Of a stretch of DNA of 64,000 nt, positions 2,701-40,207 are shown piece by piece. Below the pieces are notes generated by a model. It made no database searches, had not been told where the DNA came from, and was given only the letters and a program-made list of their open reading frames with translations. Made by a program: the position numbers and the translations under genes. Source of the stretch: a virus; IMG/VR virus record IMGVR_UViG_3300035193_000067, positions 1 to 64,000 of that record, one strand, 5' to 3'. Every line of letters starts with the position of its first letter. Position 1 is the first letter of the stretch.

Positions 2701-2702
2701 AA

Positions 2703-3236: not shown

Positions 3237-3246
3237 AGCACGCTCC

Positions 3247-7876: not shown

Positions 7877-8188
7877 TCAATAACGCTCACTGTAACGTAA
7901 TTTAAGCTCATTAAATGCTTCAACAGGGGAATTGTTTAACGAAAGTACACTCGGGTCTTCAAAAGACAGTATCTTCTCACCTTCCTCAGGAGTCAGCAGG
8001 AAACAACATTTGAAATAGCTTCTCTGAGGATTCTGCATAACAAATACATTATCCTTCTCTTTTCCGGTATTATGATAATTGACACAGTAATCCAGGAATC
8101 CAATCTGCCACTGATCGTGAGGGTCTCTGTCAGAATACTTACAGCAAAGAACATAATCTCCATGCGCTGCTGAATACACCCTTCTCAT
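7877..8188 (-). CDS. Hypothetical phage protein
   Basis: GDYVLCCKYSD.DP.D.W.IGF; GGAGG RBS. Confidence 0.7.
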   Translation of the reverse strand: MRRVYSAAHGDYVLCCKYSDRDPHDQWQIGFLDYCVNYHNTGKEKDNVFVMQNPQRSYFKCCFLLTPEEGEKILSFEDPSVLSLNNSPVEAFNELKLRYSERY

Positions 8189-8356
8189 CTACTCCTCCAA
8201 ATCCTCCGGCAGATCTGTTTCAGTCAGCTGTTCCTCGTTCTCATCATTTTGTATCAGCGCTTTTGACAAGAGGTCTTCAGCTATTAGTGAGAAACCTCTG
8301 TATATATTTACCATACCCATAACCTTACTATAGCTTGTCCTTTTTCTAACCCGCAT
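8189..8356 (-). CDS. 55-aa hypothetical protein ending DLPEDLEE
   Basis: Not in track. MRVRKRTSYSKVMGMVN...TDLPEDLEE; GGAGGAG RBS; abuts the next ATG. Confidence 0.65.
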   Translation of the reverse strand: MRVRKRTSYSKVMGMVNIYRGFSLIAEDLLSKALIQNDENEEQLTETDLPEDLEE

Positions 8357-9360: not shown

Positions 9361-9557
9361 AATATTCCTTTTTTGCGCAGATCTGCCAAAACCTGTTGAA
9401 CAAGCTCACGAGACTCAAACTTTTCATTGGCTGCTACAAGTATGTCAAGATCCTCCAATCCTGCATCAATCATTTTAAGAATGAACGATTTTACCACAGG
9501 ATAGGATTCTCGGGAAGTCTGGGCAGATCTGGTTGAGGCGGACATGGTTCTTACCAT
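9357..9557 (-). CDS. Small putative virion protein with ASTRSAQ leader
   Basis: Linker motif shared with ASRRSAQ in 9551..10453. Confidence 0.65.
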   Translation of the reverse strand: MVRTMSASTRSAQTSRESYPVVKSFILKMIDAGLEDLDILVAANEKFESRELVQQVLADLRKKGIL

Positions 9558-10453
9558 GCTTCCAGGAAATCCTGGGCAACTTCCTGCCAGTTTACCTCAG
9601 AAACAGCACCTCTCATAAGGTCTGCATAAACACCATCAAGTTCAGGAGCCATCTCATCAAACATAGACTCAATGTACTGTCCCAGAGCATAAGCATCTTC
9701 TGATTCTGCAGCAGCTTCCTGTACCATATCATACAAGCCTTGATCATTACTGATCCACAAAGCTACCGCCCATGTGGAATAATTCGACCAACCCTGGTAC
9801 TCTTGAGCAGATCTGCGGGAGGCAACCAGACCATAAGCTTGAGCGTAATCGCTCGAAGAATACCCGGCTTCTTCCAGAGCTGACAGTACTTCAGGATTAC
9901 CTGAATCAATTGCCAACCGCATTGCCTCCGCGTCATCAACGGTAGGATCTGCCCCTTGAGAAAGCAGAGAAGCCACCTGTGCAGCATCTCCTGAGTCTAC
10001 AGCCTGTTTAAGCTCGTCATCCAAACCCCACTGATCATAACTGCCCTGATCCCAACCTTCCATCTGTGCCAGCTTGGTAGGTGCACCCTGTGCAGATCTG
10101 CGGGAGGCTCTCATACCTTTACTCTCCCAGAAAGGAGCATACGCAAAAGGAACATCCAACCACCTACCGGATCCATCATCTGCATTGAAGGGCTCATAGC
10201 TATCCCCAAACTCTTCAATTATAGCACGTGCTTCAGGACTGTCTTTTACATACAAATCACTCTCATGATTATCTGTCTCAATACCTGCTTCCTGTAAAGC
10301 CTGATACAGAGAAGATCCACCCTCTTCCTGAGCCTTCTTAGCATAAGGAGAATCTTCCCCATACTGAGCATACCCTTCCCCGGCTTCTGTTGCAATGCGC
10401 TGAATAGCATCAGCTCCCAGCGGTTTACGTTTGTTCAATTGTCTGTAATCCAT
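9551..10453 (-). CDS. Modular acidic protein (DNHESDLY module + ankyrin-like module + YQGWSNY module), putative head-internal polyprotein
   Basis: Three acidic modules each preceded by KKAQ / RRSAQ..KLAQ / RRSAQ. Confidence 0.75.
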   Translation of the reverse strand: MDYRQLNKRKPLGADAIQRIATEAGEGYAQYGEDSPYAKKAQEEGGSSLYQALQEAGIETDNHESDLYVKDSPEARAIIEEFGDSYEPFNADDGSGRWLDVPFAYAPFWESKGMRASRRSAQGAPTKLAQMEGWDQGSYDQWGLDDELKQAVDSGDAAQVASLLSQGADPTVDDAEAMRLAIDSGNPEVLSALEEAGYSSSDYAQAYGLVASRRSAQEYQGWSNYSTWAVALWISNDQGLYDMVQEAAAESEDAYALGQYIESMFDEMAPELDGVYADLMRGAVSEVNWQEVAQDFLEAW

Positions 10454-10465
10454 TTTTAAAACCTC

Positions 10466-10909
10466 TTAAAATTTTGTTGAGGGCTTGTTGTATACCCTGT
10501 TAAACACATTTACACTACTCTGCAGTGATCTGTCAAGCAAACCATCCAGCAAATCGATAATTTCTTCCTGAGAAAGTTTATTCAGATCTCCGTATTCCTC
10601 TCTCAGCTGCTGTACAAGCTCCGGAGGTGCATACTGAAGAATCTCACTCTCCAGGACATCCACCAGTCCTTCACCGGTCTCCAGATTGATTTCAGCAGAT
10701 ATTTTCAACTTCTCCTCCATCTGCTCCAACCCGTCATAGTAATCTGAGAACTCCTCCAGATGATCTGTTGCAATCTCCAAAGCAGTCTCAACATCATCAG
10801 TATGCTCAAACTCCACCAGAATACCCTTCAACAGCTGCTTCTGATCATACTTTGACAGATCCTTACCATCCGCCTTGCCGCCTGGTATTTTATCCGTCAA
10901 GACAGGCAT
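10466..10909 (-). CDS. DUF5661-like protein
   Basis: QL.KGI.VE.EHT.D...A.EIA.DHL.E..DYY..L..ME. Confidence 0.75.
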   Translation of the reverse strand: MPVLTDKIPGGKADGKDLSKYDQKQLLKGILVEFEHTDDVETALEIATDHLEEFSDYYDGLEQMEEKLKISAEINLETGEGLVDVLESEILQYAPPELVQQLREEYGDLNKLSQEEIIDLLDGLLDRSLQSSVNVFNRVYNKPSTKF

Positions 10910-12082: not shown

Positions 12083-12565
12083 CTATGAAACTTTTACAGC
12101 ATACTGATTTTTTGATGCAAGACGCACACCCAGAACCTCATCAAACACTGATTCAGTATCTGGAATATATCTCCCGAATTTAATAACCACGTTTGGAAAA
12201 TCTGTCAAGAGCTTTAGCATCGCATCTACCTCAGATTCTGTATACCCTGTATAAATTACAAAATCATCAGAAACTCCCTGAGATCTGAAGTAACTCAACA
12301 GATCCAGAACTTCCCAGAACTGATCAAACGGCTCCAGCCCACCAACTACAACAGCCTGTGTCAACGGGTTGGACAGGTACCTCTCCAGAACCTCTTCCTT
12401 TGGGATCTTTACAGTCTTCAAACGTGCCTGAAGAGAGTTCTGACAGATCTCGACAGGGAATCCTCCTTCTTTGCAGCACTTCCAGGTACAACCAATTGAG
12501 ACAAGCAGCATGGATGTCTTTTTGTAATCCTGGAAGACTTCATCAACTATCTGCTTAACTCTCAT
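12083..12565 (-). CDS. nrdG: Anaerobic RNR activating enzyme (radical SAM)
   Basis: CTWKC...CQN, GGLEPF, IYTGY, KFGRY, LASKNQ; adjacent to nrdD. Confidence 0.85.
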   Translation of the reverse strand: MRVKQIVDEVFQDYKKTSMLLVSIGCTWKCCKEGGFPVEICQNSLQARLKTVKIPKEEVLERYLSNPLTQAVVVGGLEPFDQFWEVLDLLSYFRSQGVSDDFVIYTGYTESEVDAMLKLLTDFPNVVIKFGRYIPDTESVFDEVLGVRLASKNQYAVKVS

Positions 12566-14481
12566 TTAAAGAAGTCCTCTTTTATGGAGTACCACTGTCT
12601 CTTGTCAAATTCAATCTTGCGCTCTTTCGAGTACGATGATTGAGGTACAAGAAAGCCTACAACCCGTGAGTAAGTGTCTACCTTTGGCTTACCGCATTCC
12701 GGACAGATCTCCCCGAAGAATCCGTGAGATGCTTCGCAGACTGAAATCCTGGTATTGTATGCATGATAGATAACACCTGAAGCAGCAACATGATTGAGCA
12801 TCTCCCAGGCCTGATCAGTATCTGCAAAAGGTCCGTCAATATTAATGTGAGAGATCTGCCCGCCTCCACACTTCCTGTCAAGAATTGATCCTAAACGGAT
12901 CTTTTCAGCAATTGTACATTTCTCCATCAGAGGTATCCACTGGTTTGAATAGATGAAATGTTGATTGTGTTGAGGATATAACCAGTTGTCTTTGCTGCAC
13001 AGAACCACGTTAGCCCTTTCAGCAGGAACCGCTTCAACATTCAGTGAATAATCAAAAGTGTAGGAGTCCTTTACCTGGTTGATTGTGTCAAGAATCCTTG
13101 AAGCAAACTCAAGACCTTTTTCAGAATAAGACTTGTTGCCAAACAGATCTGTGTCAATGTACCCAAAATGATCAACCGCTTCAAACATTGCAGTAATACC
13201 GATAGTGTTGTACTGCTTACTCAACTCTATCAACCCGTGAGTATAATTTGGAAGAAGACCCTTTTCAATATTTCTTCTGATGATATTTCGCACAACATCC
13301 AAAACCGTAATGCAGATGTCCAAACGATCTTTCAGTATACTGATGAAGGCTTCCTCAGATCTGGATTCCAGTGCAATTCTCCTGAGGTTGATTGTATTGA
13401 CCTTTACGCTTCCAATTGACAGAGAAGTACCGCCGATAGAGTTAATGAATGCATCCAGTTTCGTGAGATCTGTAGTAAGTCTGCAGCAGGAACTTAAGCT
13501 GGTGACAGATTCTCCTACATAGAAATTGGAATCGTACCAAAGAGTATTGTGATCACTGCACCATCTCGCAAACTCTTCATCCACAAACTTACCATCCTGA
13601 TAGAGCAATGAAAAAGTCAGTACAGGGAACGTAAACATGTGTTTTCTGCGGACTTCTGCAACAACCTCCATAAAAGCTTTCTGATGCTCAATGATACCTT
13701 CTATGTGGTCTATTACGTACTCACCGTTTGGAAACTTCCTGCCTCCAAACAGCTCTGTCAGATACTCCCTGTCCATAATTGTGATATTCGTAAAGGCGCA
13801 TTCAGTTACTCTCAAATATTCCTGATTCAGATCGTAAAGAGTCTTCTGGAAACACTGTCTGCGATAGTATTCAGGATCTTTCAGATAGAATCCTTCAGAC
13901 ACGTCCTTGTGCCAGAAATAGTAAGAGTATAGCAGGTAACTGGGAAGACCCACAGCTCCGGCAGTTCTGTTTGCAGTCCAGCTGACAAACTCCAGCACAT
14001 GATCGCTGAAAGTTGTTAGGTGTTGAGGAGGATCTGTCTTCATATTGTTCATAAAGAACAGTCCTTTCTCAACAACCTGATCAAGATCATACGCGTAACA
14101 GTATGAAATCATTGAAGAATTTGAGCTATCGTGAATATATAAAGACCCGTTCCATTCCTCTTCCAGCCACTGCTCAGCCTTCTTCAAACTGTAAAGTTTT
14201 GATATTTCGTAAAAAATCTTGTTGAAAGAAAGCAGTTTTGTGTGAGGCTTCACCATATCTGAAAGAAGGGTTCTAATGTCGTGCGTACTGCTGTTTGCAT
14301 TTGCATCAATGGTAGTGTCTGCCACTGTATCAGCATCAATAAAATTATCTATGAAATCTGTAAAGTTTAAGTTCTCTGTATGGAAGCCATTCATTCTCTC
14401 GAAGTCTTCCCCGTATTTCTCCTTCATTCTGTTGAGAGCTGTCACAAAAGGCTTGTATAATTTTAAAGACTTAATGTCCAT
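12562..14481 (-). CDS. nrdD: Class III anaerobic ribonucleoside-triphosphate reductase, no ATP-cone
   Basis: TFPV, SSCCRL, TINL, PAE, GG.I.H, CPECG, glycyl-radical SRVVGFL. Confidence 0.95.
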   Translation of the reverse strand: MDIKSLKLYKPFVTALNRMKEKYGEDFERMNGFHTENLNFTDFIDNFIDADTVADTTIDANANSSTHDIRTLLSDMVKPHTKLLSFNKIFYEISKLYSLKKAEQWLEEEWNGSLYIHDSSNSSMISYCYAYDLDQVVEKGLFFMNNMKTDPPQHLTTFSDHVLEFVSWTANRTAGAVGLPSYLLYSYYFWHKDVSEGFYLKDPEYYRRQCFQKTLYDLNQEYLRVTECAFTNITIMDREYLTELFGGRKFPNGEYVIDHIEGIIEHQKAFMEVVAEVRRKHMFTFPVLTFSLLYQDGKFVDEEFARWCSDHNTLWYDSNFYVGESVTSLSSCCRLTTDLTKLDAFINSIGGTSLSIGSVKVNTINLRRIALESRSEEAFISILKDRLDICITVLDVVRNIIRRNIEKGLLPNYTHGLIELSKQYNTIGITAMFEAVDHFGYIDTDLFGNKSYSEKGLEFASRILDTINQVKDSYTFDYSLNVEAVPAERANVVLCSKDNWLYPQHNQHFIYSNQWIPLMEKCTIAEKIRLGSILDRKCGGGQISHINIDGPFADTDQAWEMLNHVAASGVIYHAYNTRISVCEASHGFFGEICPECGKPKVDTYSRVVGFLVPQSSYSKERKIEFDKRQWYSIKEDFFK

Positions 14482-17499: not shown

Positions 17500-17847
17500 T
17501 TACCTATCCCGTCGAATAGACCGCCCAACACTCTTAGGAGGAGCTTGAGCAGGTTTAGTGTTGCCGTTAAATACGGATGCTACCAGTACTCCCTTACGAT
17601 CTTCAATCAATAACGGATCTTTGGATAGAGCATCAATCGCTACAATTTTGCTGGAGTCCACTACAGCAGATTTTACTTTGTTCTGATGATCGGTAAACAA
17701 CCAGAAAGAAGGAAACCCTGTTTTTACGAAATCAAAAGCTGCCACATCATCCTTCTCAGGAAGTAAAGCTTTAAAGACATGACCACCTTCACAGAAAACT
17801 CGATATGTGTACAGAGGAACATTGATGAACTGTTTAACAGTACTCAT
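17500..17847 (-). CDS. Hypothetical protein
   Basis: ORF in operon. Confidence 0.7.
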   Translation of the reverse strand: MSTVKQFINVPLYTYRVFCEGGHVFKALLPEKDDVAAFDFVKTGFPSFWLFTDHQNKVKSAVVDSSKIVAIDALSKDPLLIEDRKGVLVASVFNGNTKPAQAPPKSVGRSIRRDR

Positions 17848-18470
17848 AGCAGCTCATAATCCACTTCTGAAGTAATGGAAGGACAGTAGCCCTTGCCTGC
17901 GGCAGTTTGGAAGTACTCTTCTTCCTCTACTGGTTTCTGTTTTGCAAAATCTGCAATATCCTTGGCAGTCAATCCAATAAAAGCAATTGTATCTCCTACC
18001 TGTACATCATTGACCTGACAAAAACCTCCCTGAACCTCCACCACTGCATCACAGGATGAACAGGACCATTTATCAGAACTGCCCGGCTTCGTATCCGCCT
18101 GAATCTTAACAACCTCATCATTCCTGATGAATAGAATGTCAAGCGGATAAGAAACGCTTCCTTGATGAAATGTTACATCAGCGCTGGGGGCATACGGAAA
18201 ATACATCCCTCTGTTTGCAGGAAGCTCCGGCGTATTCTGAAGACCTGCCATTTTTTCCGAGTGAGTATAAGCCACTTCACAAGCAATTTTAACATCCTTG
18301 TCAACCCACCAGCATACCATACGCTCAATAGGCTTCATTCTAGCTTGTTTATTTCTCATACGTGATGTCAATTTAATCTCATCTTCTGTATACGCATAAA
18401 AGGACAGGGAGTTGTCTGAGCCCTTCCACGCATAAATTTCATTACCATCTCCCTGAAGACGACACAGCAT
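17844..18470 (-). CDS. DUF192-domain protein
   Basis: EVA.T..EK..GL.....LP...GM.F........F......PLDILFI....V..I.....VVEV.GG......VGD. Confidence 0.8.
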   Translation of the reverse strand: MLCRLQGDGNEIYAWKGSDNSLSFYAYTEDEIKLTSRMRNKQARMKPIERMVCWWVDKDVKIACEVAYTHSEKMAGLQNTPELPANRGMYFPYAPSADVTFHQGSVSYPLDILFIRNDEVVKIQADTKPGSSDKWSCSSCDAVVEVQGGFCQVNDVQVGDTIAFIGLTAKDIADFAKQKPVEEEEYFQTAAGKGYCPSITSEVDYELL

Positions 18471-19139
18471 CTACCTTTTGCCGTATTTCTTCTTGGATTT
18501 TTTAGGAGACTTTGTAACAGCTTTCTTTTTCGGTGTTACTTTCTTTTCAGTAGTATCTTCCAGATCTGCAAAAATCTCAGACTCATCAATAACGTCCTCG
18601 GAGCTTACTGCATCAGGGTGTTCAACAGACTCTTCTTCAATAATGGCAGGAGCAGCCTCCTCCAGAGCAGTCTTGATTCCTGAAATAGCATCCAGGAGAT
18701 CTGCATCAGCTTCTTCAGAATCCTTGGTGGATACTTCAACAGTAACTTCTACAGGTGCTTCCACTGGCTCTACAGATGCTTCCACGGGTACAACTTCCTC
18801 TTTAACCTCTTCAGGTACATCTACAGGAACTGAAGTGCCAGGTGCGCCGATCTTGAACCTTTCAGTGTTAGCTTCATTGACAACTATCAGTTTGTTGGTC
18901 TTCAGAGCTGCCTGAACCTCAGGACTTAACTGAACGTCCATAGCAGTGTAGCCAGTCTCTTTGACAAGATCAACAGCATGTACAGCAGGAACAGTTACGC
19001 TGGCAGTCTTCCCTTTGAGAGATCTGCGTCTGTGGTGAGATGACTGTTCAAGTATTGGCAAGATTTTAGTCATCTCTTTAACAATAAGCGAAAGATTCTT
19101 TTTACCTGGATTAAATACTACAAATGCTTCCTTTTTCAT
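18471..19139 (-). CDS. Hypothetical protein, acidic middle and Lys-rich tail
   Basis: AGGAGG RBS; composition. Confidence 0.75.
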   Translation of the reverse strand: MKKEAFVVFNPGKKNLSLIVKEMTKILPILEQSSHHRRRSLKGKTASVTVPAVHAVDLVKETGYTAMDVQLSPEVQAALKTNKLIVVNEANTERFKIGAPGTSVPVDVPEEVKEEVVPVEASVEPVEAPVEVTVEVSTKDSEEADADLLDAISGIKTALEEAAPAIIEEESVEHPDAVSSEDVIDESEIFADLEDTTEKKVTPKKKAVTKSPKKSKKKYGKR

Positions 19140-19153
19140 AAAATACCTCCTGT

Positions 19154-21550
19154 TTATGATTTAAAAAGATCAGCCAAATTATCTTTTCCCAGAAACTTTT
19201 TCAGCTCTTCAGGAGGCATACCAACCTCAGATAGAACTCGCTGAGAAAGCATCAACGCTTTGCTCATAGCAATCTCTGTCTCATTGGATGCGGGAACATC
19301 CGCGCTTTCCACGTCTTTATATATCTTAAGAACCTGTCCTTCCTGCGAATTAGGATCTACTAGAGGATCTGCAGCAGGTGCCGCAGGAGCTGCCGGAGCA
19401 GCAGGAGCTTCCGCAGGTGCTTCAGCAGGAGCTTCCGCAGGAGCTGCCGGAGCAACTTCTTCCTGTGCAGACTTCAACAGTTTCTGAAAAGCTTTACGCT
19501 TCTTCTGAGCTTCAGCAGCCTCACGCAGAACTCTGGCAGCTGTTGGAGCAGGCTGTGCAGGAGCTGCCGGAGCCGCCGGGGCAGCAGGCGCTTGAGGTGC
19601 CGCAGGTGCTGCGGGAGCCTTTGGAGCAGGTGTTACAGGTGCGGGTTTAGCATTTCCTGCAGGAGCTGTACCAGGTTTCTGCAACTGAATCTGTATAATT
19701 TTCTGTTTCTGATCAGGCTGCATCCCCATAATGTCTTCCGCAGTCCACCCAAGAGTCTTCAAACCTTCATCACCAGCACCTGCCGCAGGGGTTGGTGCAG
19801 GAGCTGCCGGAGCTGCAGGAGCCTTTGGAGCAGGTGTCTTCTTGTCACCACCAGCAGGGGCTGCAGGAGCTGCAGGAGCAGGTGTCTGAGGTGCAGCAGG
19901 AGCTGCCTGAGCTTTAATAGGATTCTTGGGCAGTTTCTGCTGACCATGAGTTTCAGGAGTTGTTTGAATCTCCGGTTCATAAACCTTGGCAGAATCTCCT
20001 TCACCTTTATTACCACGATCCTCATCTTTGTTCGAATCATCTTTATCAGGAGCTGAAACATCTACTCCCATGTCATCCGTCAGATCTTCACCGTACCACC
20101 CAAAATAACCTGCCCAATAATCCTGGGCAAACTCATCAGCAGCTGTTTTAGTGGCTGTTATGCCATAAGTCTGAGCAACTTCACTCCAGTTTACAGAATC
20201 CAAAGAATTTTCCGCAAGGTCTGCGTAAAAACCTTCCAATTCAGGAGCACCTTCACTCACAGCAGCAACTACCGCATTCTGTATACTCAACTCAATACTC
20301 TGAGACCCATCAGATTCAACAGCACTCTGGACACGCTGTCTTAGATCATCATCATGCATAACCCATGCAGCTACTATTTTAGTAGAATCATTAGACAAAC
20401 TATCATATACCTGCGCTGTTTTAGCCTGTACTTCACCCATCTCCTCAGACGTAGCATCTCCAGGCATTCTTGGGGCAAGTTTTGACCAATCATAGTCATC
20501 TTCCGTACCCATCGATCTCACCAGGTGATACAGCTCTTCTGCAGATTCTGCTTCAAGATCCCGCATATACTGACCGGAATCTCCCCAATTCTCTTTGATC
20601 TTTACTGAAGTTTTACCCTGTTGCTTGTTGTAGGTGTCCCAGGCAAGTGCATAAGGATTGTCAACATCAGGATCCTTTTTCAGTTTCTTAACCAGTTCTT
20701 CCATTCCAGGAGGTGCTACAGATGCCTTGTCACAAACTGTATCACTTTTGGAATCCATCATCTCTGCTACACGATCCAGCATCCATGATTCAGGATCTGT
20801 GATATTGACCAGATATTTGTTATCCGGTACAGCAGCCACTCTCTGGTCATAAGACATACCTCTGCGAGGAGCCGCAAAAGTGTCTACAATTAAGGAAGAA
20901 CGTTTGGCAGTTAAAGGAGACTCATCTTCTTCGTCTTCTTCGTCTTCTTCATAAGGATCTGTATCTTCCTCATCCTCCACACCTTCAAAATCTTCCACCA
21001 GCTCATACATGTCCTCAAGGTGCTCCTCCATCTCTTCAATGAAGTCTTCCTCATACTCGTCATCCATGTCTTCCTGAGCAAACCTGCTGTAAGCCTTCAT
21101 CTCTCGGGAATCACTGTCTCTCCCCAGATCTGTATCAGTAAACCCACCACGCTCCACTGAAGTCTGTGGATTCTTATTGACTGCAGGACTCTTGAAGACA
21201 ATACTGCCGGTATCTGCTCCAGTTCCTTTTTCAACAGAAACCTGATCAGCTTTGGGACCCTTGTCAACCTTGGGAGACTTGAAAGCCTCGTCAGTGCTTG
21301 TGTCAGGCCCCAGAACGCCTTTAGGAGGTGCTGGGTAGGTAACAGGCTTGGGAGTCTTCTCCGGGATTCCAGCAGCCTTGCAGAAGTCTTTTACAGAACT
21401 CTCGAAATGGAAAAATGAAGATTTCCTGGAGGCTCCGGAAGGATCGGTCAAAACAACCTGGTCATCAGCATTGACCGAAATTGACCATTTGTTGTGAGAG
21501 ACTTTGTTGCCTTTAAGCAAATCACTTTTTACTGTATTATATGTTTTCAT
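19154..21550 (-). CDS. Large modular head-internal/scaffold-like protein with Pro/Ala-rich and acidic tracts
   Basis: Modules bounded by RFAQ, KTAQ, KTAA, IKAQ, KSAQ; contains a degenerate copy of the VNWxEVAQ module and a DYW.GYFG.YG module. Confidence 0.75.
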   Translation of the reverse strand: MKTYNTVKSDLLKGNKVSHNKWSISVNADDQVVLTDPSGASRKSSFFHFESSVKDFCKAAGIPEKTPKPVTYPAPPKGVLGPDTSTDEAFKSPKVDKGPKADQVSVEKGTGADTGSIVFKSPAVNKNPQTSVERGGFTDTDLGRDSDSREMKAYSRFAQEDMDDEYEEDFIEEMEEHLEDMYELVEDFEGVEDEEDTDPYEEDEEDEEDESPLTAKRSSLIVDTFAAPRRGMSYDQRVAAVPDNKYLVNITDPESWMLDRVAEMMDSKSDTVCDKASVAPPGMEELVKKLKKDPDVDNPYALAWDTYNKQQGKTSVKIKENWGDSGQYMRDLEAESAEELYHLVRSMGTEDDYDWSKLAPRMPGDATSEEMGEVQAKTAQVYDSLSNDSTKIVAAWVMHDDDLRQRVQSAVESDGSQSIELSIQNAVVAAVSEGAPELEGFYADLAENSLDSVNWSEVAQTYGITATKTAADEFAQDYWAGYFGWYGEDLTDDMGVDVSAPDKDDSNKDEDRGNKGEGDSAKVYEPEIQTTPETHGQQKLPKNPIKAQAAPAAPQTPAPAAPAAPAGGDKKTPAPKAPAAPAAPAPTPAAGAGDEGLKTLGWTAEDIMGMQPDQKQKIIQIQLQKPGTAPAGNAKPAPVTPAPKAPAAPAAPQAPAAPAAPAAPAQPAPTAARVLREAAEAQKKRKAFQKLLKSAQEEVAPAAPAEAPAEAPAEAPAAPAAPAAPAADPLVDPNSQEGQVLKIYKDVESADVPASNETEIAMSKALMLSQRVLSEVGMPPEELKKFLGKDNLADLFKS

Positions 21551-21561
21551 TACTGTATCCT

Positions 21562-22806
21562 TTAAAGATATTCTGCTCGTTCTATGTAATCTTCTACACC
21601 AAACTCTTTGATAGCCTCTACTGCCTGCATAATAACTTCCAAAGGCTGATCTTCTATTGAATCATACTCTCCAAAACCACTTGCATCGTAGATAGACCCA
21701 TCAACTTCATCAATCTTACTCTGAACCTCTTCCAAGCTCATGTCCGATAGGTCTAACCAGAAGCTGGAAACATCTCCTTCAGGGGTTTTATGTGCTATCT
21801 CTATACTAGGAGGACCTTCTTCAGCTCCATCCTCATCATCCCAGTCCGCATCCCATCCTTGAGCTTTCTTGTCAGACGATCCAGTTTTACCATAAACTTC
21901 TTCAAAACCAGCCATTGAGTAACCGTACTCTTCAAACAAAGACACAAACTTATCAAAAGGATAGGGATAGCTACCCTGAGAAGCGTCTTGCATCTTAAAC
22001 ATCGTCATAAAAGCTTCTGCACCATTTGCTGAAGGATCTGCACCCCTATCCAGATAACGTTTTGCAGCGCCAAGATCCATATCCTTAACCGCATCAACAA
22101 GAGCCCAGTCAAGATCATCCTGAGTAGACTCTTCTTCAGGAGAATCCCATTCTGCGTACTGCTCAGGATCCCAACCTTCCATCTGTGCACGCTTGTTTAC
22201 CATCTCAATAATAAAGTCACGAGCTTTCTTGTTTTGAGGATTGTTCACCGACAGACCATTAACACGCATCATGTAGTCAAAATCATCCTGATCATGAATG
22301 GAAGCAGCAATTCCCATCAGTTTGGTCATATCCAGCTTCACGTACCCATTGGCTGCAGAATTCTCCAGGCAGTCAACTGCTGCAGATTTGGGGAATCTTG
22401 CACTATAATGATCACGAATCTCTGCAAAGGTTGCATAATCCACAGAACCTGTCCGATTCTTCTCCCACAGTTTCTTCACATGAGCATACAGAGCTTTCAG
22501 CCCCACATCCCGCTTATCCGCTGTCATAGCCTGTTTCACAGCATTATGCAGATCAAAGGTGGATACTACCGGAAGATCTCCATCAATCTCAGAAGCCTCC
22601 TCCTCAACCCGCTCAGCCAGCTTCTCCCGCAACATGGACAGTTTGTCCATTGTGTTGTCAGGCTCATAATAAGATCTCATACGAGCCTCATCACGTTCTT
22701 CAGCAGCTTTGATGTCAGAAGCATAATGCTGAGACAATTTCCCAAAATCCAAAAGGTCGAAAGACTCTCCTGAATATTCCTTTAGTTTACTTAAAACAGA
22801 TTTCAT
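21562..22806 (-). CDS. Modular protein: N-terminal domain + ankyrin-like module + ArdA-like acidic module
   Basis: KRAQ-MEGWD...GADP module shared with 9551..10453; KKAQ then acidic C-terminal domain. Confidence 0.75.
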   Translation of the reverse strand: MKSVLSKLKEYSGESFDLLDFGKLSQHYASDIKAAEERDEARMRSYYEPDNTMDKLSMLREKLAERVEEEASEIDGDLPVVSTFDLHNAVKQAMTADKRDVGLKALYAHVKKLWEKNRTGSVDYATFAEIRDHYSARFPKSAAVDCLENSAANGYVKLDMTKLMGIAASIHDQDDFDYMMRVNGLSVNNPQNKKARDFIIEMVNKRAQMEGWDPEQYAEWDSPEEESTQDDLDWALVDAVKDMDLGAAKRYLDRGADPSANGAEAFMTMFKMQDASQGSYPYPFDKFVSLFEEYGYSMAGFEEVYGKTGSSDKKAQGWDADWDDEDGAEEGPPSIEIAHKTPEGDVSSFWLDLSDMSLEEVQSKIDEVDGSIYDASGFGEYDSIEDQPLEVIMQAVEAIKEFGVEDYIERAEYL

Positions 22807-22840: not shown

Positions 22841-22864
22841 ATTCTAGCACAATCACTGACGAAA
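22841..22864 (-). promoter_or_regulatory. Putative phage late promoter TTTCG-N13-TAGAAT
   Basis: TTTCG TCAGTGATTGTGC TAGAAT. Confidence 0.65.
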
Positions 22865-23157: not shown

Positions 23158-24210
23158 TTACTCCGTGAGGAAATCCTGGGCAACTTCCTGCCAATTTACC
23201 GCAGAGATAGACTCTTCATTGATAGCATCAGAGAAGGCTTCCAATACCCCGAAGTTGTCTTCTGACAAAGACTTTATATACTCAGCAAGACTCTGCACAT
23301 CTCCTTCAGCTGCAACACCCTGTACCTGCTTGTAAATCTCATACTCATTGTTGATCCACAAAGCTACTGCCCATGTAGCATAATTTGTCCAGCCCTGATA
23401 TTCCTGAGTTTCCCAATCCTCTTGAGCTTTTTTAGACTGTGCTTTCTTACGGTCCTTAACATCCTTGGTCATATCTGCCCCGTAACCAGTATCTGAATAA
23501 TAAGCCGACCAGTACTCTGCAGCAGCTTCATCTACACCCTGCTTAACCATCCACAGCTTCACCAGATCTGCCTTAACTCTCTTCTTGACTTCCTTAACCA
23601 GAGACTCCCCAAAAGGCCCATAATAAGCCTTGTAGTACTCTGCAGCAGCCTGATCAATAGCAATCTTCGGAATAGAGCTGGACAGGACCTGTCTTACTTT
23701 TTTGACAAGTGCTTTAGGTGCTGAAGAGGTCTTACCTTCTTTAACTGTATCAACAATCTCCTTCAAAACAGCTGTCCCAACCTTTTCCCAGTCTTCAACC
23801 AGATCTGCCGCCATTACAAAAGGAATGTTCAGTTCTTTGGAAGCCAAACGAGCTTTCATACCAAACTCAACGCTTTCCTTCACAGAAGCTACTTTATCCG
23901 CGCCAAAAGCCTTGCTCAGCTTTGCCCAGGACATTACCTTCGGAGCAGTCTCTCCGGCATCCTGCAGCTCTTTAGCAACTTTTGAATAATGTTTGGAAGC
24001 ATTGTGAGGCAATCGAGAGAACTGCCGCAGATCGGTCATGGAAGCTCCCCACATGCCAAGACTTGCCGCAGCCTTTGCCTGATACAGCTCCAGATCGTCA
24101 AGATCCTCTCGCTCAGCCTTGGTACGATTAACGATGACGTCTCCATCACGTGTGGCATTCGACTGCCAGAGATGATGAGACTGTTTAGTTGTTTTACGCC
24201 TTTTAACCAT
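23158..24210 (-). CDS. Modular protein with two AAAEY(W/Y).AYY modules and a C-terminal YQGWTNY module
   Basis: KKAQSKKAQ precedes a module homologous to the end of 9551..10453. Confidence 0.75.
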   Translation of the reverse strand: MVKRRKTTKQSHHLWQSNATRDGDVIVNRTKAEREDLDDLELYQAKAAASLGMWGASMTDLRQFSRLPHNASKHYSKVAKELQDAGETAPKVMSWAKLSKAFGADKVASVKESVEFGMKARLASKELNIPFVMAADLVEDWEKVGTAVLKEIVDTVKEGKTSSAPKALVKKVRQVLSSSIPKIAIDQAAAEYYKAYYGPFGESLVKEVKKRVKADLVKLWMVKQGVDEAAAEYWSAYYSDTGYGADMTKDVKDRKKAQSKKAQEDWETQEYQGWTNYATWAVALWINNEYEIYKQVQGVAAEGDVQSLAEYIKSLSEDNFGVLEAFSDAINEESISAVNWQEVAQDFLTE

Positions 24211-26406: not shown

Positions 26407-26909
26407 TAGTCCTCCTGAAAATAATCCTTTGTCGGATCATACGGCCGTATTATAAACTCTGATCTCTCCTCATCATCCCACTTCTCATCCCCTTTTACTA
26501 TTTTTTCCTCCATCTGAAAACGTACAAGTTTGTCATCCATCAAAGTCTTGTCCAGAACATCATATACCTGTTTACCATTTTCATCCTTCACAAGTCTGTT
26601 ATTCTCCTTCCGTTTAACCTTCCTTCCTTGCATGGCATCCAGAAGCACTGCAGGAAGATTGTCCAGATCCGGCTCCCACTGCCGTCTGTGGTAGAATTTA
26701 TACCAGATCTCAACCAGGTAGTCAATAGGAGCTTCACCACCCTGCTCAAGGAACTGTTGGTGAATATCTGCACAGATCTCATCACGTCTCTTGGTAAAGT
26801 CTGAAGAATGCCCTACCGCATAATGTTTTCCTCTCTTCTGAACCTTGATATTATTCTTTTGAGAGAGCGGTCTTCCGTATACTACGAACTTGTAAACTCG
26901 ATCTTTCAT
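26406..26909 (-). CDS. rusA: RusA-like Holliday junction resolvase
   Basis: V.GRP.S..N, PDLDNL...LLDAM, DDKLV. Confidence 0.8.
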   Translation of the reverse strand: MKDRVYKFVVYGRPLSQKNNIKVQKRGKHYAVGHSSDFTKRRDEICADIHQQFLEQGGEAPIDYLVEIWYKFYHRRQWEPDLDNLPAVLLDAMQGRKVKRKENNRLVKDENGKQVYDVLDKTLMDDKLVRFQMEEKIVKGDEKWDDEERSEFIIRPYDPTKDYFQED

Positions 26910-27181
26910 TGTGGAATCTCTGAGGTACAGAGAAGACCTCTGCCGTACAAAGCTGCCCACTCCGGAGCTTTCTTTGTAGTCAGCTTTTTACCAGCAGGAT
27001 CCATAAAGATAATATCTACGCTATCATCAACTTTAGAGAACATAAAAGAAGCATTACCTTTTGTTTCTCTGCATTCTTTAAAATCCTCCCCAAAAAAATC
27101 ACACCATACCTTTAATGCATCTTCCGCACTATACGCTATTACAGTATTCCAAACATTAGACCAAACACTCAACTTTTTCAT
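26906..27181 (-). CDS. MKKLSVW family copy 3
   Basis: MKKLSVW...AYSAEDAL.VW...EW..L.GRG.LC.SE. Confidence 0.8.
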   Translation of the reverse strand: MKKLSVWSNVWNTVIAYSAEDALKVWCDFFGEDFKECRETKGNASFMFSKVDDSVDIIFMDPAGKKLTTKKAPEWAALYGRGLLCTSEIPQ

Positions 27182-27197
27182 TTTGCACAACACCTTT

Positions 27198-27458
27198 CTA
27201 AAACTCCGAGGTACAAAGAATACCTCTGCCGTTTAAACCTACCCACTCACAAGCTTTCATGGTAGTTCTCCCTTCCGTATCAAGATCCATAATTGTAATC
27301 TCTTGATCATCAGGTACTTCAGAAAATACATAACCTATCCTTCCTTCGAACGCAATAAAGTCCTCACCAAAGAAATCACACCATACAGTTAATGCATCTT
27401 CTGCACTGTACGCGACAATACTATCCATTTCACTTTTCCAAACACTCAACTTTTTCAT
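27198..27458 (-). CDS. MKKLSVW family copy 2
   Basis: Same motifs as copy 3. Confidence 0.8.
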   Translation of the reverse strand: MKKLSVWKSEMDSIVAYSAEDALTVWCDFFGEDFIAFEGRIGYVFSEVPDDQEITIMDLDTEGRTTMKACEWVGLNGRGILCTSEF

Positions 27459-27474
27459 TTTGCACAACACCCTT

Positions 27475-27735
27475 CTAAAACTCCGAGATGCAAAGAAGAC
27501 CACGACCGTTCAGAGCAACCCATTCATAAGCTTTCATCGTAACCTCTTCTTTTGTATTTCTGTCAAAAATTGACAAATCTACACTATCTGCAACTTCAGT
27601 AAAAACGTACTTAACTTTACCGTCAAACAAATCGTACTTACCTCTGAATAAACCTTCCCATAAAGACAGAGCATCATCCTCGCTGTAAGCTGCCACAACT
27701 CCCACTGCACACACCCAAACACTCAACTTTTTCAT
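27475..27735 (-). CDS. MKKLSVW family copy 1
   Basis: Same motifs; ATGA overlap with upstream stop. Confidence 0.8.
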   Translation of the reverse strand: MKKLSVWVCAVGVVAAYSEDDALSLWEGLFRGKYDLFDGKVKYVFTEVADSVDLSIFDRNTKEEVTMKAYEWVALNGRGLLCISEF

Positions 27736-27980
27736 TTTGCACAACACCTTACTAAAATCTCCCTGGCAGCAGGGTCTTTTTTCCAAAACTCCTTAAACAA
27801 AAAATCACGATCATCAGCAGTACCGTTTTTCCAAAGATCCGTTATCTTACGATCTGTATAAGGACCTGTAATAATAACAATATCACCATCAATGTACCTG
27901 TAGGCAGTCTTGGATTTAGACTGTCCAGCCGCCTGTGCACGCTTGTGTGCTTCGTGATTATATGTTGGTTTATTTTCCAC
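27732..27980 (-). CDS. Hypothetical protein
   Basis: Coupled ORF. Confidence 0.65.
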   Translation of the reverse strand: MENKPTYNHEAHKRAQAAGQSKSKTAYRYIDGDIVIITGPYTDRKITDLWKNGTADDRDFLFKEFWKKDPAAREILVRCCAK

Positions 27981-28543: not shown

Positions 28544-30643
28544 TTACTGTACAGCTGATCCAATTTCTATCTGAGTACATCCATTGGACTTACGAGCTGT
28601 CCAGGTACCATTAAACGTAACCAGATCTCGAACCTTGTCACTGTTGTCTGTCAAAAACACAGTACCTTTGGTAAGCATTGCCTGAAGACTCTGTGCAACC
28701 CTCTGAGCATTATTCCCATCCATGTAGCCAAAGATCTCATCAAGCAGCATCAAATTACAGCCCTGACCGGACTTCCTTGCCATCTCATACATAGCCTTGG
28801 CAACCGCAAGAGACACTTTGGCAATCTCCCCTTCAGAATACAACTTGGGATGGATATTCTTCTTACCATCATAGATCTCCAGCTTTACTTCATTCTTCAA
28901 CAGATCCATGGTGGAAGCTGCATTCCTGGAAGAGGACTTCTCATTAAATGCTGAAACATTGACTCTCATCGAATCCCCCATATTTGACAGAAACTCATTG
29001 GCCAGATCTGTAATATCCTTCATGGATTCAGACAGCTTCAGCAGCTTTATTGAAGGTATGTTGGAGATAAGCCACTCATACAGCGCAACTTCCTTCAACA
29101 GCTCCTGCATGGATCCCTTGTGCTGCTTAATTCCTTTTCCTCTTTCCTGAATCTGTATCTCAAGAGAATTTATGTCATTGATCTTTTGCTCTATCAAAAC
29201 CACTTCAGATTTTTTGTTGGATCCCAGCTGACGAATCCTACCCAGATCCTCCTGAGCTTCCTGGACAGCCTCTCCAGCCTCTCTAATAACTCCATCATAT
29301 GCAGAATAAGCTTCGTACTCACTGGTAAGTCTTTTACCCAGATCCTGAAGAGATCCTCTCAGCTCCTGAGCACGCAAGTACAGCGAATTAACCCGAGACT
29401 CTTCTTCCGAGGTTTTCTTATCAAGATCCTGCTGCATACAGGTCTGCTTTTTTGCAATCTCCTCATTAAGCTGATTGATCCTTTCCTGATAAGCTTCCAC
29501 ACGAGTCTGACGCTCATTTAGTATTGACTGCTTCTTGTCGGAAGAGATACCCTGTGCACACACTGGACAGGTATCTATTGACAGGATGTTATCTCCTTCA
29601 TGCAAAGCAGAATTCAGAGTTCCCTGGGTGCGGTGCAGATCTCTGGTAAGGTCATTCAACTCTTTTTGCAGATTAGGATCAGCACTTACAGGACGGGATA
29701 CCATCGATCTCTCAACGCCTGCCAGATCTGTCTTGATTGAAAGCTCTTCCTGATTAAGCTGATTAATGATGTCCACATTTAAAGTGGATTTGCGCTTCTC
29801 CTCCAAATCTGTATAAGCAGCTTTTTTGCTCTTCAGCAAAGTCTCTCCTGCTGCATACTCATCACGGAGATCCTGCAGTTCCTTTTTCGCCTCGGACAAC
29901 TTACCTACATAGTCAAGAGATCTTAATGACTCCAGTTGAGATTTAAGAGTGTCGACAGATCCCTGCTCATGAGAAATCTTCAGATTTAACTGAGTGATCT
30001 GATCCTGCAGCTGTTTTCGGCTTTTTCTGGCCTTGTCCTGTATTGAATCCCATTCTTCCACTCCAGTAATACCTGAAAGAAGTGTCATTCGCTCCTTATT
30101 GGTTCCTCTTAAGAACCTGGAACCCACTCTGGGAGACAGAAAAGAGATAGCCAGAAAATTTGCATAAGAAATCCCAATAATCTCCTTGATCTTCTCTTTT
30201 GTTTGAGGCATGCCGGATCCTCTGCAATCAATCCACTGACGAGCCTCTGAATCAAATCTGTCAAGGTATAGACCGGTTCCTACATAATTGGTTGAAGTAT
30301 CATTATCAACTTCGTAAAAAGCCTTTTTCCACTTCCTGGTGTATGTGATCCTCCAGTGCGTTTGATCTGTAGTAGTAAACAACAACCTTCCTGCCATACC
30401 CTGACCCCAAACAGAATTAATGACATCGTCACCTTTCATTTCTGTGGGATTGTCCTGAAACAGCATTTCACATATTGCATAGAACAGAGAAGACTTCCCG
30501 GATCCGTTGCTGTCACCACCTTTATCATCATTCACTCCCTGAAGATGAATCAAACCCTTGTTCATCAAATGAACAGGTTGTGGGCAGAGTCCGTAGGAAA
30601 ACATCCCGGTTGGGTTTACTGCATGAATGGTTAGTACACTCAT
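28544..30643 (-). CDS. sbcC: SbcC/Rad50/gp46-like SMC ATPase
   Basis: NGSGKSS Walker A, coiled coil with CPVC zinc hook, YSEGE signature, LLDE Walker B. Confidence 0.92.
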   Translation of the reverse strand: MSVLTIHAVNPTGMFSYGLCPQPVHLMNKGLIHLQGVNDDKGGDSNGSGKSSLFYAICEMLFQDNPTEMKGDDVINSVWGQGMAGRLLFTTTDQTHWRITYTRKWKKAFYEVDNDTSTNYVGTGLYLDRFDSEARQWIDCRGSGMPQTKEKIKEIIGISYANFLAISFLSPRVGSRFLRGTNKERMTLLSGITGVEEWDSIQDKARKSRKQLQDQITQLNLKISHEQGSVDTLKSQLESLRSLDYVGKLSEAKKELQDLRDEYAAGETLLKSKKAAYTDLEEKRKSTLNVDIINQLNQEELSIKTDLAGVERSMVSRPVSADPNLQKELNDLTRDLHRTQGTLNSALHEGDNILSIDTCPVCAQGISSDKKQSILNERQTRVEAYQERINQLNEEIAKKQTCMQQDLDKKTSEEESRVNSLYLRAQELRGSLQDLGKRLTSEYEAYSAYDGVIREAGEAVQEAQEDLGRIRQLGSNKKSEVVLIEQKINDINSLEIQIQERGKGIKQHKGSMQELLKEVALYEWLISNIPSIKLLKLSESMKDITDLANEFLSNMGDSMRVNVSAFNEKSSSRNAASTMDLLKNEVKLEIYDGKKNIHPKLYSEGEIAKVSLAVAKAMYEMARKSGQGCNLMLLDEIFGYMDGNNAQRVAQSLQAMLTKGTVFLTDNSDKVRDLVTFNGTWTARKSNGCTQIEIGSAVQ

Positions 30644-30819
30644 GCGTCTCTCCAGCGCTCTCGTTGGCAGTTGTTCTTGACATTAAGACCTTTTTGAAGT
30701 ACTCCTCCACACTTCTCACAACGCCTGTCCAGATGCTCTGCAGGCACCTCTGTGTCGTTGTAGATTTCCTCCACAGGATTGGAGCATTCAAGACAAAAAT
30801 ATTCCACAAGCTTTGCCAT
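30640..30819 (-). CDS. FmdB-like zinc-ribbon protein (59 aa)
   Basis: Not in track. MAKLVEYFCLECSNPVEEI...CEKCGG; GAGG RBS; ATGA overlap with sbcC. Confidence 0.75.
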   Translation of the reverse strand: MAKLVEYFCLECSNPVEEIYNDTEVPAEHLDRRCEKCGGVLQKGLNVKNNCQRERWRDA

Positions 30820-30837
30820 CTTATTAACCTCTCAATT

Positions 30838-31938
30838 CTACGATTTTTTCAATTCTATAACTTTTTCAATAATAGCGACTTTAGACAAGCTGCCTATACA
30901 GGAAAAATTACTATCAATGTATCTTTCAACATCATCTTCAGGAGACCCGTCTTTTTCCAAATCACACACTGATTCATATCTCTGAGCAGAGTATCCACGA
31001 AGGACATCCACTCTACGGGCATTTAACTGCCTGCTTAGCTTATTCCAATAATCATCATCTGCCAATCTGTCAACATCGCTTTTATCTCCATATAGACGAA
31101 CCTCAACCAGCTGATCCACCACCTGATCATCAGGTATGGTCAGATCTGTTATAGCAGTAGCGGCAGTTACGTCAAAAGAGACCTTGGTGAAGAAATTTCG
31201 AATAGGCTGAAAACGTTCTTCTATTTCCCATGTGCTTCCTGGTGTTTTTCTTGTGATAGTATACTCTGTCCAACCTCTTTCAACATTGGCATCCGCTTTA
31301 TTGCGCTGTATTGCAGACCCTAAATACCTGCCTTTAGTATTGTTTAAGTTAAGCACCTGACGGATATGAATATCACCTGCCAGAACAAGATCAAACTCAG
31401 GCAGATCTATTAAAGATGGATCAAGACCTCCATCAGAGGATCTAACATGATCTTCATCAAAGAAGCAACCTCTTAAGGAATCATGAAAAGTGAACAGATT
31501 GAAGCAATCCAGATCAATTTCATATGCAGACTTGTCCATCCTGAAATCTGCAGGAAGTGCATGAATCCTTATATTCTTAAAAGGATACGTCTTTGATTCA
31601 TCCATTACCACTACATTGTTGTAGCTCTTAAGAGACTCTGAAGTATGCCAGCGCATTGTGGCATCCACCCAGTCATGGTTACCGATCAGATGGTAATGAG
31701 GGATCTTTCCAGTATGCACGTTCTCTTCAATGACTCTATCAGCTCTCACCTTAACTTCATCATGAGGCTCTCTTTTTAGATACCGATCACCTGGAAAGAG
31801 TGTAAAATCAGCTCCCCATTCCCTGGCTCTGTTGAAGATGGCGGTTTCCAGTGCAACTGTGTCATTGATAGTAATACACTTAGCCCCGTTTTCATCATGG
31901 TGTATATCTGACCAGGCTATAAACTTATAGCATTCCAT
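30838..31938 (-). CDS. sbcD: SbcD/Mre11/gp47-like metallophosphoesterase nuclease
   Basis: SDIH, GD, GNHD, GDIH, YLGS motifs; next to sbcC. Confidence 0.9.
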   Translation of the reverse strand: MECYKFIAWSDIHHDENGAKCITINDTVALETAIFNRAREWGADFTLFPGDRYLKREPHDEVKVRADRVIEENVHTGKIPHYHLIGNHDWVDATMRWHTSESLKSYNNVVVMDESKTYPFKNIRIHALPADFRMDKSAYEIDLDCFNLFTFHDSLRGCFFDEDHVRSSDGGLDPSLIDLPEFDLVLAGDIHIRQVLNLNNTKGRYLGSAIQRNKADANVERGWTEYTITRKTPGSTWEIEERFQPIRNFFTKVSFDVTAATAITDLTIPDDQVVDQLVEVRLYGDKSDVDRLADDDYWNKLSRQLNARRVDVLRGYSAQRYESVCDLEKDGSPEDDVERYIDSNFSCIGSLSKVAIIEKVIELKKS

Positions 31939-32248: not shown

Positions 32249-33256
32249 TTAAAAGCCGTAGTGCTCTTTTACGCCCTTTTCAAGCACTGCAAACACTTCA
32301 GGAGCCTCTTTTAGCGCTTCAACAAAATTACCCAAACCCTGTGCTTTCAACTCCCCATAGGAATACCAACCACCACCACTTTTACTTACTAAATCAAGCC
32401 CTTCAGCAAGATCAACAATCTCCTCTTCATAAGGAATACCTTCCCCGTACCTGACAATAGTCGAAGCTTCCCTGAATGGAGGTGCCAATTTGTTTTTGAT
32501 AAACTTAACACGTACGTCATTATGGGTAGCAATACCGTCCTTGTCCTTATGTGTTTTGGTTCTTCGAATATCCAACCGCATAGAAGCAAAAAACTTAAGA
32601 GCATTTCCCCCAGAGGTTGTTTCATTACTTCCGTACGTAACCCCTAGCTTACTTCTAATCTGATTAACCCATAAAAGAATCACACCAGAACTGCCAACAA
32701 TGGAATTGAGCTTTCTGCATGCCTGGGACATCAACCGTGCCTGCGCACCCATTTGAGCATCACCCATCTCCCCATTAATTTCAGAGACAGGAGTAATAGC
32801 TGCAACAGAATCAATCACAATAATATCACCTTCACCAAAAACCTTGCACATATCCTCAACAGAGTTCAAGCCCTGCTCACCTGAATCAGGCTGAAGGAGT
32901 AACGCTTTGCTTAAATCAAACCCGAGATTGGAACAGTAGGAAGGATCCAAAGCATGCTCGAAATCGCAGTAAAAAACCATCCCACCTTTCTTTTGCACTT
33001 CTGCACAGGTCTGGATACAGATTGTGCTTTTCCCTGAACTCTCCGGTCCAAAGATCTCCACCATCCTCCCATGAGGTGCTCCACCGATTCCTGATGCAAT
33101 ATCCAGTTTCAGAGATCCGAAAGAGGTGTGCGGGACTTCATTTTTAATATCCGTCTCATCCATTACCATAATCTCTGTTTTATTCAACTTATTGAACTGC
33201 TGCAAAATATCCTGTACAGATCGTGTTGCAACTTTTTCACTCTTTTTCTTAGCCAT
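32249..33256 (-). CDS. recA: RecA recombinase
   Basis: GPESSGKST, DFEHALDP, IDSVAA, QARLMSQA.RK, NQIR, GGNALKF..S.RLD. Confidence 0.98.
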   Translation of the reverse strand: MAKKKSEKVATRSVQDILQQFNKLNKTEIMVMDETDIKNEVPHTSFGSLKLDIASGIGGAPHGRMVEIFGPESSGKSTICIQTCAEVQKKGGMVFYCDFEHALDPSYCSNLGFDLSKALLLQPDSGEQGLNSVEDMCKVFGEGDIIVIDSVAAITPVSEINGEMGDAQMGAQARLMSQACRKLNSIVGSSGVILLWVNQIRSKLGVTYGSNETTSGGNALKFFASMRLDIRRTKTHKDKDGIATHNDVRVKFIKNKLAPPFREASTIVRYGEGIPYEEEIVDLAEGLDLVSKSGGGWYSYGELKAQGLGNFVEALKEAPEVFAVLEKGVKEHYGF

Positions 33257-39430: not shown

Positions 39431-40207
39431 TTAAAATATTTCATTAGACCACAACCACCACACATACCACTGACTCAACATTTGTGGATACAGATGAGGT
39501 TTAGAAAAACCATAAAGACCACAGGAGTAAAAATTATGAACTTCTATAACATACAGATTCCCATTGTAAACTCCTATATCTAAAGTGTACGCAGAAGGAT
39601 ATTCTGTAGGCTTTACCTTCTCGTATTCACGATCACATTCACGTGCAAAAGCCTGAATATCACAAGCCTGTTTAAACAGTTCTCCTTCATACTGCTTTAT
39701 GTCCAAAAGTAAACCGTTAAAAATAAAACATCGATACTCTGCATCAAAACCTGAAGGCAAGTATTCTGTTACCTGCCATCTTCCTGCAGGAATGTCAACA
39801 GACACTCCATTTAAAGGATGTTTTATCTTCTCCATAGACTTAATAAACACAGGAGCACTATATCCACATAGAGGCACATCCTGCTGGTTAAACACAGAGA
39901 TATCTTTCACAGCAATATAAGGATTCAAACCATAAAGATAAAGAGCTTTAGGAACATTTACAGGAGAAGGTACAGGTATATCGTTTAACTCAAAAAACCT
40001 GTGAACAAATTCAACAGATCCTACAGGCACACTACTGCAGACATCTTCCACTTTTTCAGGAGCTATACACAACTCCCACACCTTCTCCTTGTAAGAAGTA
40101 AGCGCACCATCATATACTCTATTCTGATACTTAATAGAATTAATAAGCTCCACCTGCCAATCAAACATAGGTAATCCATCAGTATCGCATTGAATTAAAA
40201 ACCTCAT
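39431..40207 (-). CDS. ATP-grasp domain protein (DUF4343/R2K-like)
   Basis: PVGSVEFV, FIK, EYRCFI, Y.G, YTLDIG, IEVH..YSCGLYG. Confidence 0.75.
   Translation of the reverse strand: MRFLIQCDTDGLPMFDWQVELINSIKYQNRVYDGALTSYKEKVWELCIAPEKVEDVCSSVPVGSVEFVHRFFELNDIPVPSPVNVPKALYLYGLNPYIAVKDISVFNQQDVPLCGYSAPVFIKSMEKIKHPLNGVSVDIPAGRWQVTEYLPSGFDAEYRCFIFNGLLLDIKQYEGELFKQACDIQAFARECDREYEKVKPTEYPSAYTLDIGVYNGNLYVIEVHNFYSCGLYGFSKPHLYPQMLSQWYVWWLWSNEIF

Follow-up and report, generated by a model that had tools for sequence, protein, structure and literature searches.

The 64,000-nt stretch of DNA analysed here (hereafter the window), which makes up positions 1 to 64,000 of a 163-kb IMG/VR virus record whose estimated completeness is 93%, carries on its minus strand a 414-aa open reading frame (21562-22806) that encodes a multi-module protein with a net charge of -46 and ends in a strongly acidic C-terminal module. 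A sequence-only reading had taken this module, located behind a KKAQ tetrapeptide, for an ArdA-like DNA mimic. This raises the question of whether the module is related to the antirestriction protein ArdA, how much of ArdA it retains, and what it may do at the end of a larger phage protein. The residues on which that reading was built are present as written at the C-terminus of the 414-aa protein, with KKAQ at residues 313-316 and the module running from there to the stop codon.

Genomic setting and modular architecture of the 414-aa protein

All genes around the 414-aa ORF lie on the same strand as it does. They encode an anaerobic ribonucleotide reductase (12562-14481), an SbcCD-like nuclease (28544-31938), RecA/UvsX (32249-33256) and a family A DNA polymerase (40204-42396), together with a DnaB-like helicase and an SNF2 helicase. 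Flanked by these replication and nucleotide-metabolism genes, the 414-aa gene is ~65-70 kb away from the head module, which encodes the portal, prohead protease and capsid protein at ~90-98 kb of the genome. Among described phages, the uncultured 'Virus Rctr197k' is nearest, its capsid protein being 57% identical. No R-M-related or other anti-defence genes were identified beside the 414-aa gene. A promoter-like site, TTTCG-N13-TAGAAT, was found 35 nt upstream of the ORF (22841-22864, minus strand), where TGc preceding TAGAAT gives the look of an extended -10 element. The pattern TTTCG-N12-13-TAnnnT is not enriched genome-wide (12 sites vs 17 expected), and scans for sigma-70 promoters and terminators gave nothing informative.

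Small tandem paralogous genes without assigned function were also observed in the window, in two groups of three at 26906-27786 and 2251-3834, with identities of about 47-55% and 27-61%, respectively. Separately, a 222-aa protein whose centre is acidic and rich in Val, Glu and Pro and whose tail is lysine-rich (..KKAVTKSPKKSKKKYGKR) is encoded at 18471-19139, adjoining a DUF192 (PF02643) protein at 17844-18470, and both are kept in the ortholog contig L106.

The 414-aa protein consists of at least three modules. Its N-terminal helical part, or 'carrier' (residues 1-203; 22198-22806, minus strand), is common to an ortholog sharing 85% identity (P0002), a metagenomic protein of 461 aa (P0003) and Rctr197k_034. 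An ankyrin-like middle module (residues 204-310; 21877-22197, minus strand) opens at the second junction, KRAQ (residues 205-208), and is paralogous to residues 126-212 of a 300-aa protein encoded in the same window (blastp, 34% identity, E 7e-6), on which a weak Ank match was found. The KKAQ junction (21859-21870, minus strand) comes next and is conserved in P0002, followed by an acidic disordered linker (residues 317-331, GWDADWDDEDGAEEG; 21814-21858, minus strand) with pLDDT <50, which leads into the C-terminal module. P0003 resembles the window protein over its N-terminal ~215 residues, departs from it directly after KRAQMEGWDPEQY and has another, repeat-containing C-terminal half, which looks like a natural module swap at the junction.

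Exchange of modules at the junctions was also observed among the paralogs, whose homology begins at these sites. The 300-aa modular protein (9551-10453, minus strand) has a leader-like N-terminus (..AIQRIAT..), a KKAQ and two RRSAQ junctions, the Ank-like module and a C-terminal DUF7249, which occupies the place of the ArdA-N-like module in the 414-aa protein. In a 350-aa neighbour (23158-24210, minus strand), DUF7249 comes after a KKAQSKKAQ junction. The window thus encodes DUF7249 (PF23907), characterised by the motif W-[ST]-N-Y-[AS]-T-W-A-V-A-L-W, in three copies: the two just described, C-terminal behind RRSAQ or KKAQ, and one internal to a 798-aa Ala/Pro-rich acidic protein (19154-21550). 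For DUF7249, neither a sequence relative in the PDB nor any literature was found. Among the modules of the 414-aa protein, only the ArdA-N-like one has a conflict-related relative, and no ArdC-N, methylase or peptidase (zincin) domain was detected in the protein.

Relationship of the C-terminal module to ArdA

The window sequence alone gave no ArdA match in Pfam and no family in PHROGs, and the ArdA HMM of Pfam had zero matches anywhere in the 163-kb genome. Moreover, BLASTP of the window module against Tn916 Orf18 ArdA gave nothing, and no ArdA match was obtained in the PDB with phmmer for the window protein or with the module profile. When 1.8 billion representatives were searched exhaustively with HMMER, a very small module family emerged, consisting of the fused ortholog P0002 and five small proteins of 83-216 aa (P0005, P0006, P0007, P0008 and P0011), and the module alignment comprised seven sequences. 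Three further HMMER matches (P0004, P0009 and P0010) were discarded as repeat-summed false positives, being Calx-beta/Kelch repeat proteins. The tblastn matches in phiCD211 and phi36, considered as candidates for 'N-terminal only' ArdA, were likewise rejected, as both are full ArdA by profile.

The family member that matched Pfam ArdA best was P0005, at positions 17-79 with 13.8 bits (E 0.094), which is under the cut-off. No member of the module family reached the gathering threshold of PF07275 (27 bits), and the window protein gave no match. By profile-profile comparison with hhalign, the seven-sequence module family aligned to 25 diverse ArdA, a set of R64 ArdA, the Tn916-type Orf18 from pCF10, and enterobacterial, Bacteroidota and phage ArdA, with a score of 28.75 (P 1.9e-4 local, 5.7e-5 global) and a probability of 38-47% over 71-84 columns. 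Module residues 331-402 were placed on Orf18 residues 2-75, reproducing the register that had been proposed by eye. None of 300 column-shuffled controls with composition kept reached this score (mean 11.4, sd 2.2, maximum 20.0), and the reversed module alignment scored 15.8. Significance was obtained only with the diverse ArdA profile; against a narrow enterobacterial ArdA profile the comparison was not significant (P 0.05-0.18). Furthermore, when the diverse-ArdA HMM was searched against 586 ORFs and proteins from the genome, the sister contig and the family, the top six included five of the eight module-family entries. The window's own module copy is the most diverged one and ranked low with this HMM.

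AF2 run on the seven-sequence alignment gave a model of the module (m031d567715ec) with a confident core (pLDDT ~90); a single-sequence AF2 model of the whole 414-aa protein was poor (pLDDT 47). When the module model was compared by VIA-align 2 with every one of 48,161 PDB representatives, the ArdA structure 2w82_A ranked first (Z 4.2, rmsd 3.1 Å, 67 aligned residues, 24% identity), with model residues 18-87 on ArdA residues 3-75. The matches after ArdA had Z <= 3.4 and identities of 3-17%. Although a Z of 4.2 is weak alone, ArdA was an a priori candidate and came first among 48,161 structures, and we therefore counted this result as support. Foldseek, with which the sequence-only reading had proposed to compare the module with ArdA structures, gave another outcome: the module model found no ArdA and nothing significant in PDB and BFVD, the best PDB matches being the phage p56 UDG inhibitor and other small phage inhibitor folds (Gp2) at E ~0.3 or higher. 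A search of the ESM Atlas with the module gave nothing informative.

One and the same register resulted from three methods, namely Pfam, structural alignment and profile-profile alignment. In addition, the module and ArdA have two motifs in common, W-x-[DE]-L, which follows the second strand, and D-x-E-G-F, which follows the third. Because the window copy goes undetected by Pfam, BLASTP and the ArdA HMM, the case for homology depends on the family, which has only seven sequences. At the level of this family, the claimed resemblance to the N-terminus of ArdA goes beyond chance (VIA-align rank 1, hhalign P ~2e-4, 0/300 shuffles), and the module is very likely a genuine remote homolog of the N-terminal part of ArdA.

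Extent, fold and charge of the module

[quoted passage not shown] 2009, PMC2731889). In the 414-aa protein, residues 332-401 (21604-21813, minus strand) align structurally with ArdA residues 3-75, that is, with domain 1 and the first helix of domain 2. The AF2 model has a beta-beta-alpha-beta arrangement followed by two helices (strands 20-26 and 32-38, helix 44-54, strand 57-62, helices 75-88 and 90-97). AF2, VIA-align and hhalign all indicated the three-stranded antiparallel sheet with one short helix that makes up ArdA domain 1 (Orf18 3-61). Instead of the four-helix bundle of domain 2, only two helices (model 75-88 and 90-97) precede the stop codon, and domain 3, with the anti-restriction motif, the VF motif and the dimer interface, is absent. 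The alignments stop at ArdA residue ~75-85, and the 414-aa protein terminates 13 residues further on, at the equivalent of ArdA ~85-90. Based on the family alignment and the AF2 model, these last residues (402-414; 21565-21603, minus strand) comprise a short helix and the C-terminus, with a G..DY motif conserved across the module family. The module is ArdA domain 1 with the start of domain 2, an ArdA-N-like short form and not a full ArdA. As it is below the Pfam threshold and lacks the essential motifs of the family, we did not file it as ArdA.

The net charge of the module is about -20 (-18 over 82 aa, -26 over 98 aa), compared with -15 for residues 1-75 of Orf18 ArdA, so that in net charge, the only measure of acidity considered, the module has the high negative charge of ArdA. 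Of the proposed ArdA-like DNA mimic, the N-terminal kinship and the strong acidity, a property of DNA mimics, thus hold, but VIA-align and hhalign confine the likeness to domain 1 and the first domain 2 helices.

On balance, we favour the explanation that a truncated ArdA-type domain has become an exchangeable acidic end-module, probably a decoy. The C-terminal ~85 residues would represent ArdA domain 1, with its three-stranded sheet and helix, and two helices of domain 2, without domain 3. Within a group of modular phage proteins, of which others bear DUF7249, it would serve as an exchangeable acidic end, attached behind the conserved basic-Ala-Gln junction. As for function and target, we infer that it is most likely an acidic decoy for a host protein of defence or DNA handling, in which it would occupy a DNA-binding surface. 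Domain 1 of full ArdA has been modelled as a mimic of the DNA contacted by HsdR. The retained part is without demonstrated activity of its own, since domain 1 is reported to be dispensable, its deletion leaving anti-restriction activity, and since the methyltransferase core is bound by domains 2 and 3 (PMC2731889). The domain occurs as a mobile unit in its own right, as a leader-bearing stand-alone protein in one phage and as part of a larger protein in another, and this argues for a function of its own despite the reported dispensability.

Junction motif, leader and possible packaging

A delivery route would be added to the decoy explanation, with which it is compatible, if the module were virion cargo. 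The modular proteins would be packaged in the prohead, the protease would cut [KR][KR]x0-1A[QS] between the Ala and the Gln or Ser, and the freed ArdA-N-like module would be ejected with the DNA as a ready-made anti-defence factor, similar to T4 Ip1-3. We regard this as possible but doubtful, with indirect support for the picture of the sequence-only reading, in which a late-expressed carrier would deliver the module from behind a putative cleavage site. In its favour, four neighbouring modular proteins contain 11 copies of the motif [KR][KR]x0-1A[QS], while 0.48 are expected from residue shuffles (0/5000). This regular expression was defined post hoc on the modular proteins, which weakens the argument, but it was already fixed when the N-termini of the capsid protein (genome 90013-91179) and the prohead protease (93731-94657), both outside the window, were counted. 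Here, four copies were found against 0.25 expected (1/5000), two in each protein, and the two N-termini have the heptad-like string RKSASK in common. It is possible, judging from these motif matches, that [KR][KR]x0-1A[QS] in the capsid protein and the protease is a maturation-cleavage motif identical to the window junctions. Herpesvirus assemblin, which is counted among the relatives of phage prohead proteases, prefers Ala at P1 and Ser at P1', in agreement with such a cut, and the beginning of paralog homology at the junctions fits it as well. On the other hand, the capsid protein of Rctr197k conserves the motif only in part.

Further support for packaging comes from a sister contig, IMGVR_UViG_3300031673_000407 (L004), the late module of which is colinear with that of this genome, including the protease, a large head protein, the capsid protein (65% identity) and seven more genes. 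There, a small gene of its own (7899-8264), located between conserved late-region genes, encodes the ArdA-N-like module, and the protein starts with a ~15-residue leader, M[KR]xG[IL][ST]xxG[MI]xR[IL]A[QK]. At least 11 ORFs of L004 (6480-15719) have this leader, their bodies being unrelated and mostly acidic, and they are interleaved with the conserved late-region genes. The leader is also reused between modules inside two longer L004 ORFs (13171-13905 and 14586-end). The metagenomic relatives P0005, P0006, P0008 and P0011 bear an L004-type leader, and an acidic linker similar to that of the window protein comes after the leader in stand-alone relatives. T4 internal proteins are likewise recognised by an N-terminal signal (PMC12373910).

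Several observations speak against packaging of the 414-aa protein itself. Its gene is amid replication genes, distant from the head module, and the upstream site resembles a host-type extended -10 promoter. In addition, this genome essentially lacks the L004 leader, the sole copy being a weak one at the N-terminus of the 300-aa protein, and the alignment of the leader to GYSMAGFEEVYG, upstream of KKAQ, is about as good as its alignment to KKAQ.

As a separate observation, a DUF5661-like 147-aa protein encoded at window 10466-10909 is homologous to L004:13171-13905 from residue 22 of the latter on, that is, the same cargo without the leader.

A wider form of the packaging reading, which we consider unlikely, is that a large uncultured phage lineage, comprising the 163-kb genome, L004 and Rctr197k-like phages, possesses short acidic cargo modules, one of them derived from ArdA domain 1. 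These would be addressed to the capsid by a conserved leader or junction, released by the protease at [KR][KR]xA[QS], again between the Ala and the following residue, and concatenated into polyproteins in this genome.

Possible antirestriction activity and possible chance resemblance

It is improbable that the module, alone or as an oligomer, is a functional equivalent of ArdA that inhibits Type I R-M enzymes. Its ArdA homology and its DNA-like charge density would be consistent with such an activity, and ArdA mutants impaired in dimerisation are reportedly still active against restriction. However, the module covers about one third of the 42-bp-equivalent mimic, and the methyltransferase-core-binding domains 2-3 and the essential anti-restriction and VF motifs are missing. 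Moreover, it is the retained domain 1 whose deletion ArdA activity survives (PMC2731889). Because the methyltransferase-binding domains are missing, Type I inhibition in the manner of full ArdA is unlikely.

A chance resemblance, in which composition and the common beta-beta-alpha-beta arrangement yield matches for a small acidic alpha/beta domain unrelated to ArdA, is improbable: a Z of 4.2 falls in the range that the tool calls common, Foldseek lists p56 and Gp2 instead of ArdA, and the hhalign probability and the comparison with the narrow enterobacterial profile are both modest, but ArdA, the a priori candidate, combines rank 1 with the highest identity, three independent methods agree on one register, composition-preserving shuffles never come near the real score, the score climbs with the diversity of the ArdA profile, and the W-x-D/E-L and D-x-E-G-F motifs are in common.

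Comparison with known systems

The truncated ArdA-type end-module, which we favour as a decoy, resembles ArdA (PF07275; Tn916 Orf18, PDB 2w82; ColIb-P9/R64) in the domain 1 fold and the first domain 2 helices, in the W-x-[DE]-L and D-x-E-G-F motifs, in its very acidic surface and in its home in mobile elements and phages. Different from ArdA, which is a stand-alone protein of ~165 aa, it is the C-terminal domain of a 414-aa protein, is under the Pfam threshold, and is without the four-helix bundle, domain 3, the anti-restriction motif, the VF motif and the dimer interface.

An ArdA-like phage protein limited to the N-terminal half is already known. Gp4 of Bacillus phage Mgbh1 (YP_009595149, 179 aa), annotated as an anti-restriction protein, matches the ArdA profile only at positions 4-79 of 155, which is the span also covered by the module, and is the closest annotated analogue of the latter. 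Unlike the module, it gives a clear ArdA match (67 bits), and its ArdA part is N-terminal, with an unrelated C-terminal part. It is a small stand-alone early-region protein encoded directly upstream of an ocr-like gene (gp5).

The occurrence of ArdA domains in larger proteins is known as well. They are fused in multidomain polyvalent proteins of phages and conjugative elements, and for some of these proteins, delivery with the DNA and proteolytic processing have been proposed or are known (Iyer, Burroughs, Anand, de Souza and Aravind 2017, PMC5512222). Like the 414-aa protein, polyvalent proteins carry several modules in one polypeptide, in their case conflict-related ones including ArdA. Their usual partner domains were, however, undetected in the 414-aa protein, in which the modules are short, acidic and without assigned function (DUF7249 in the set, Ank-like). 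What is new here is that an unstudied phage lineage has a family of short ArdA-N-only modules, occurring either fused or tagged with the leader.

T4 internal proteins have a common N-terminal packaging signal by which they are recognised, and the delivery of anti-restriction cargo together with the DNA is the proposed logic of Ip1-Ip3 (PMC12373910). The many small late-region proteins of L004, with their one N-terminal leader, are similar to T4 Ip1-Ip3 with their capsid targeting sequence. The two sets have no sequence relation, and the module of the 414-aa protein is fused behind a 314-residue protein and not behind a ~10-residue signal. In this genome, a shared packaging signal of the T4 type would be limited to the internal [KR][KR]xA[QS] junctions and the one weak leader-like N-terminus. 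If the junction motif is a prohead-protease site, injected anti-defence proteins could be sought in metagenomes with a second system definable by sequence, on a par with the signal of the T4 internal proteins. If the cargo reading holds for the whole lineage, these phages would possess an injected anti-defence arsenal like that of the T4 internal proteins, with a different signal and a different decoy fold.
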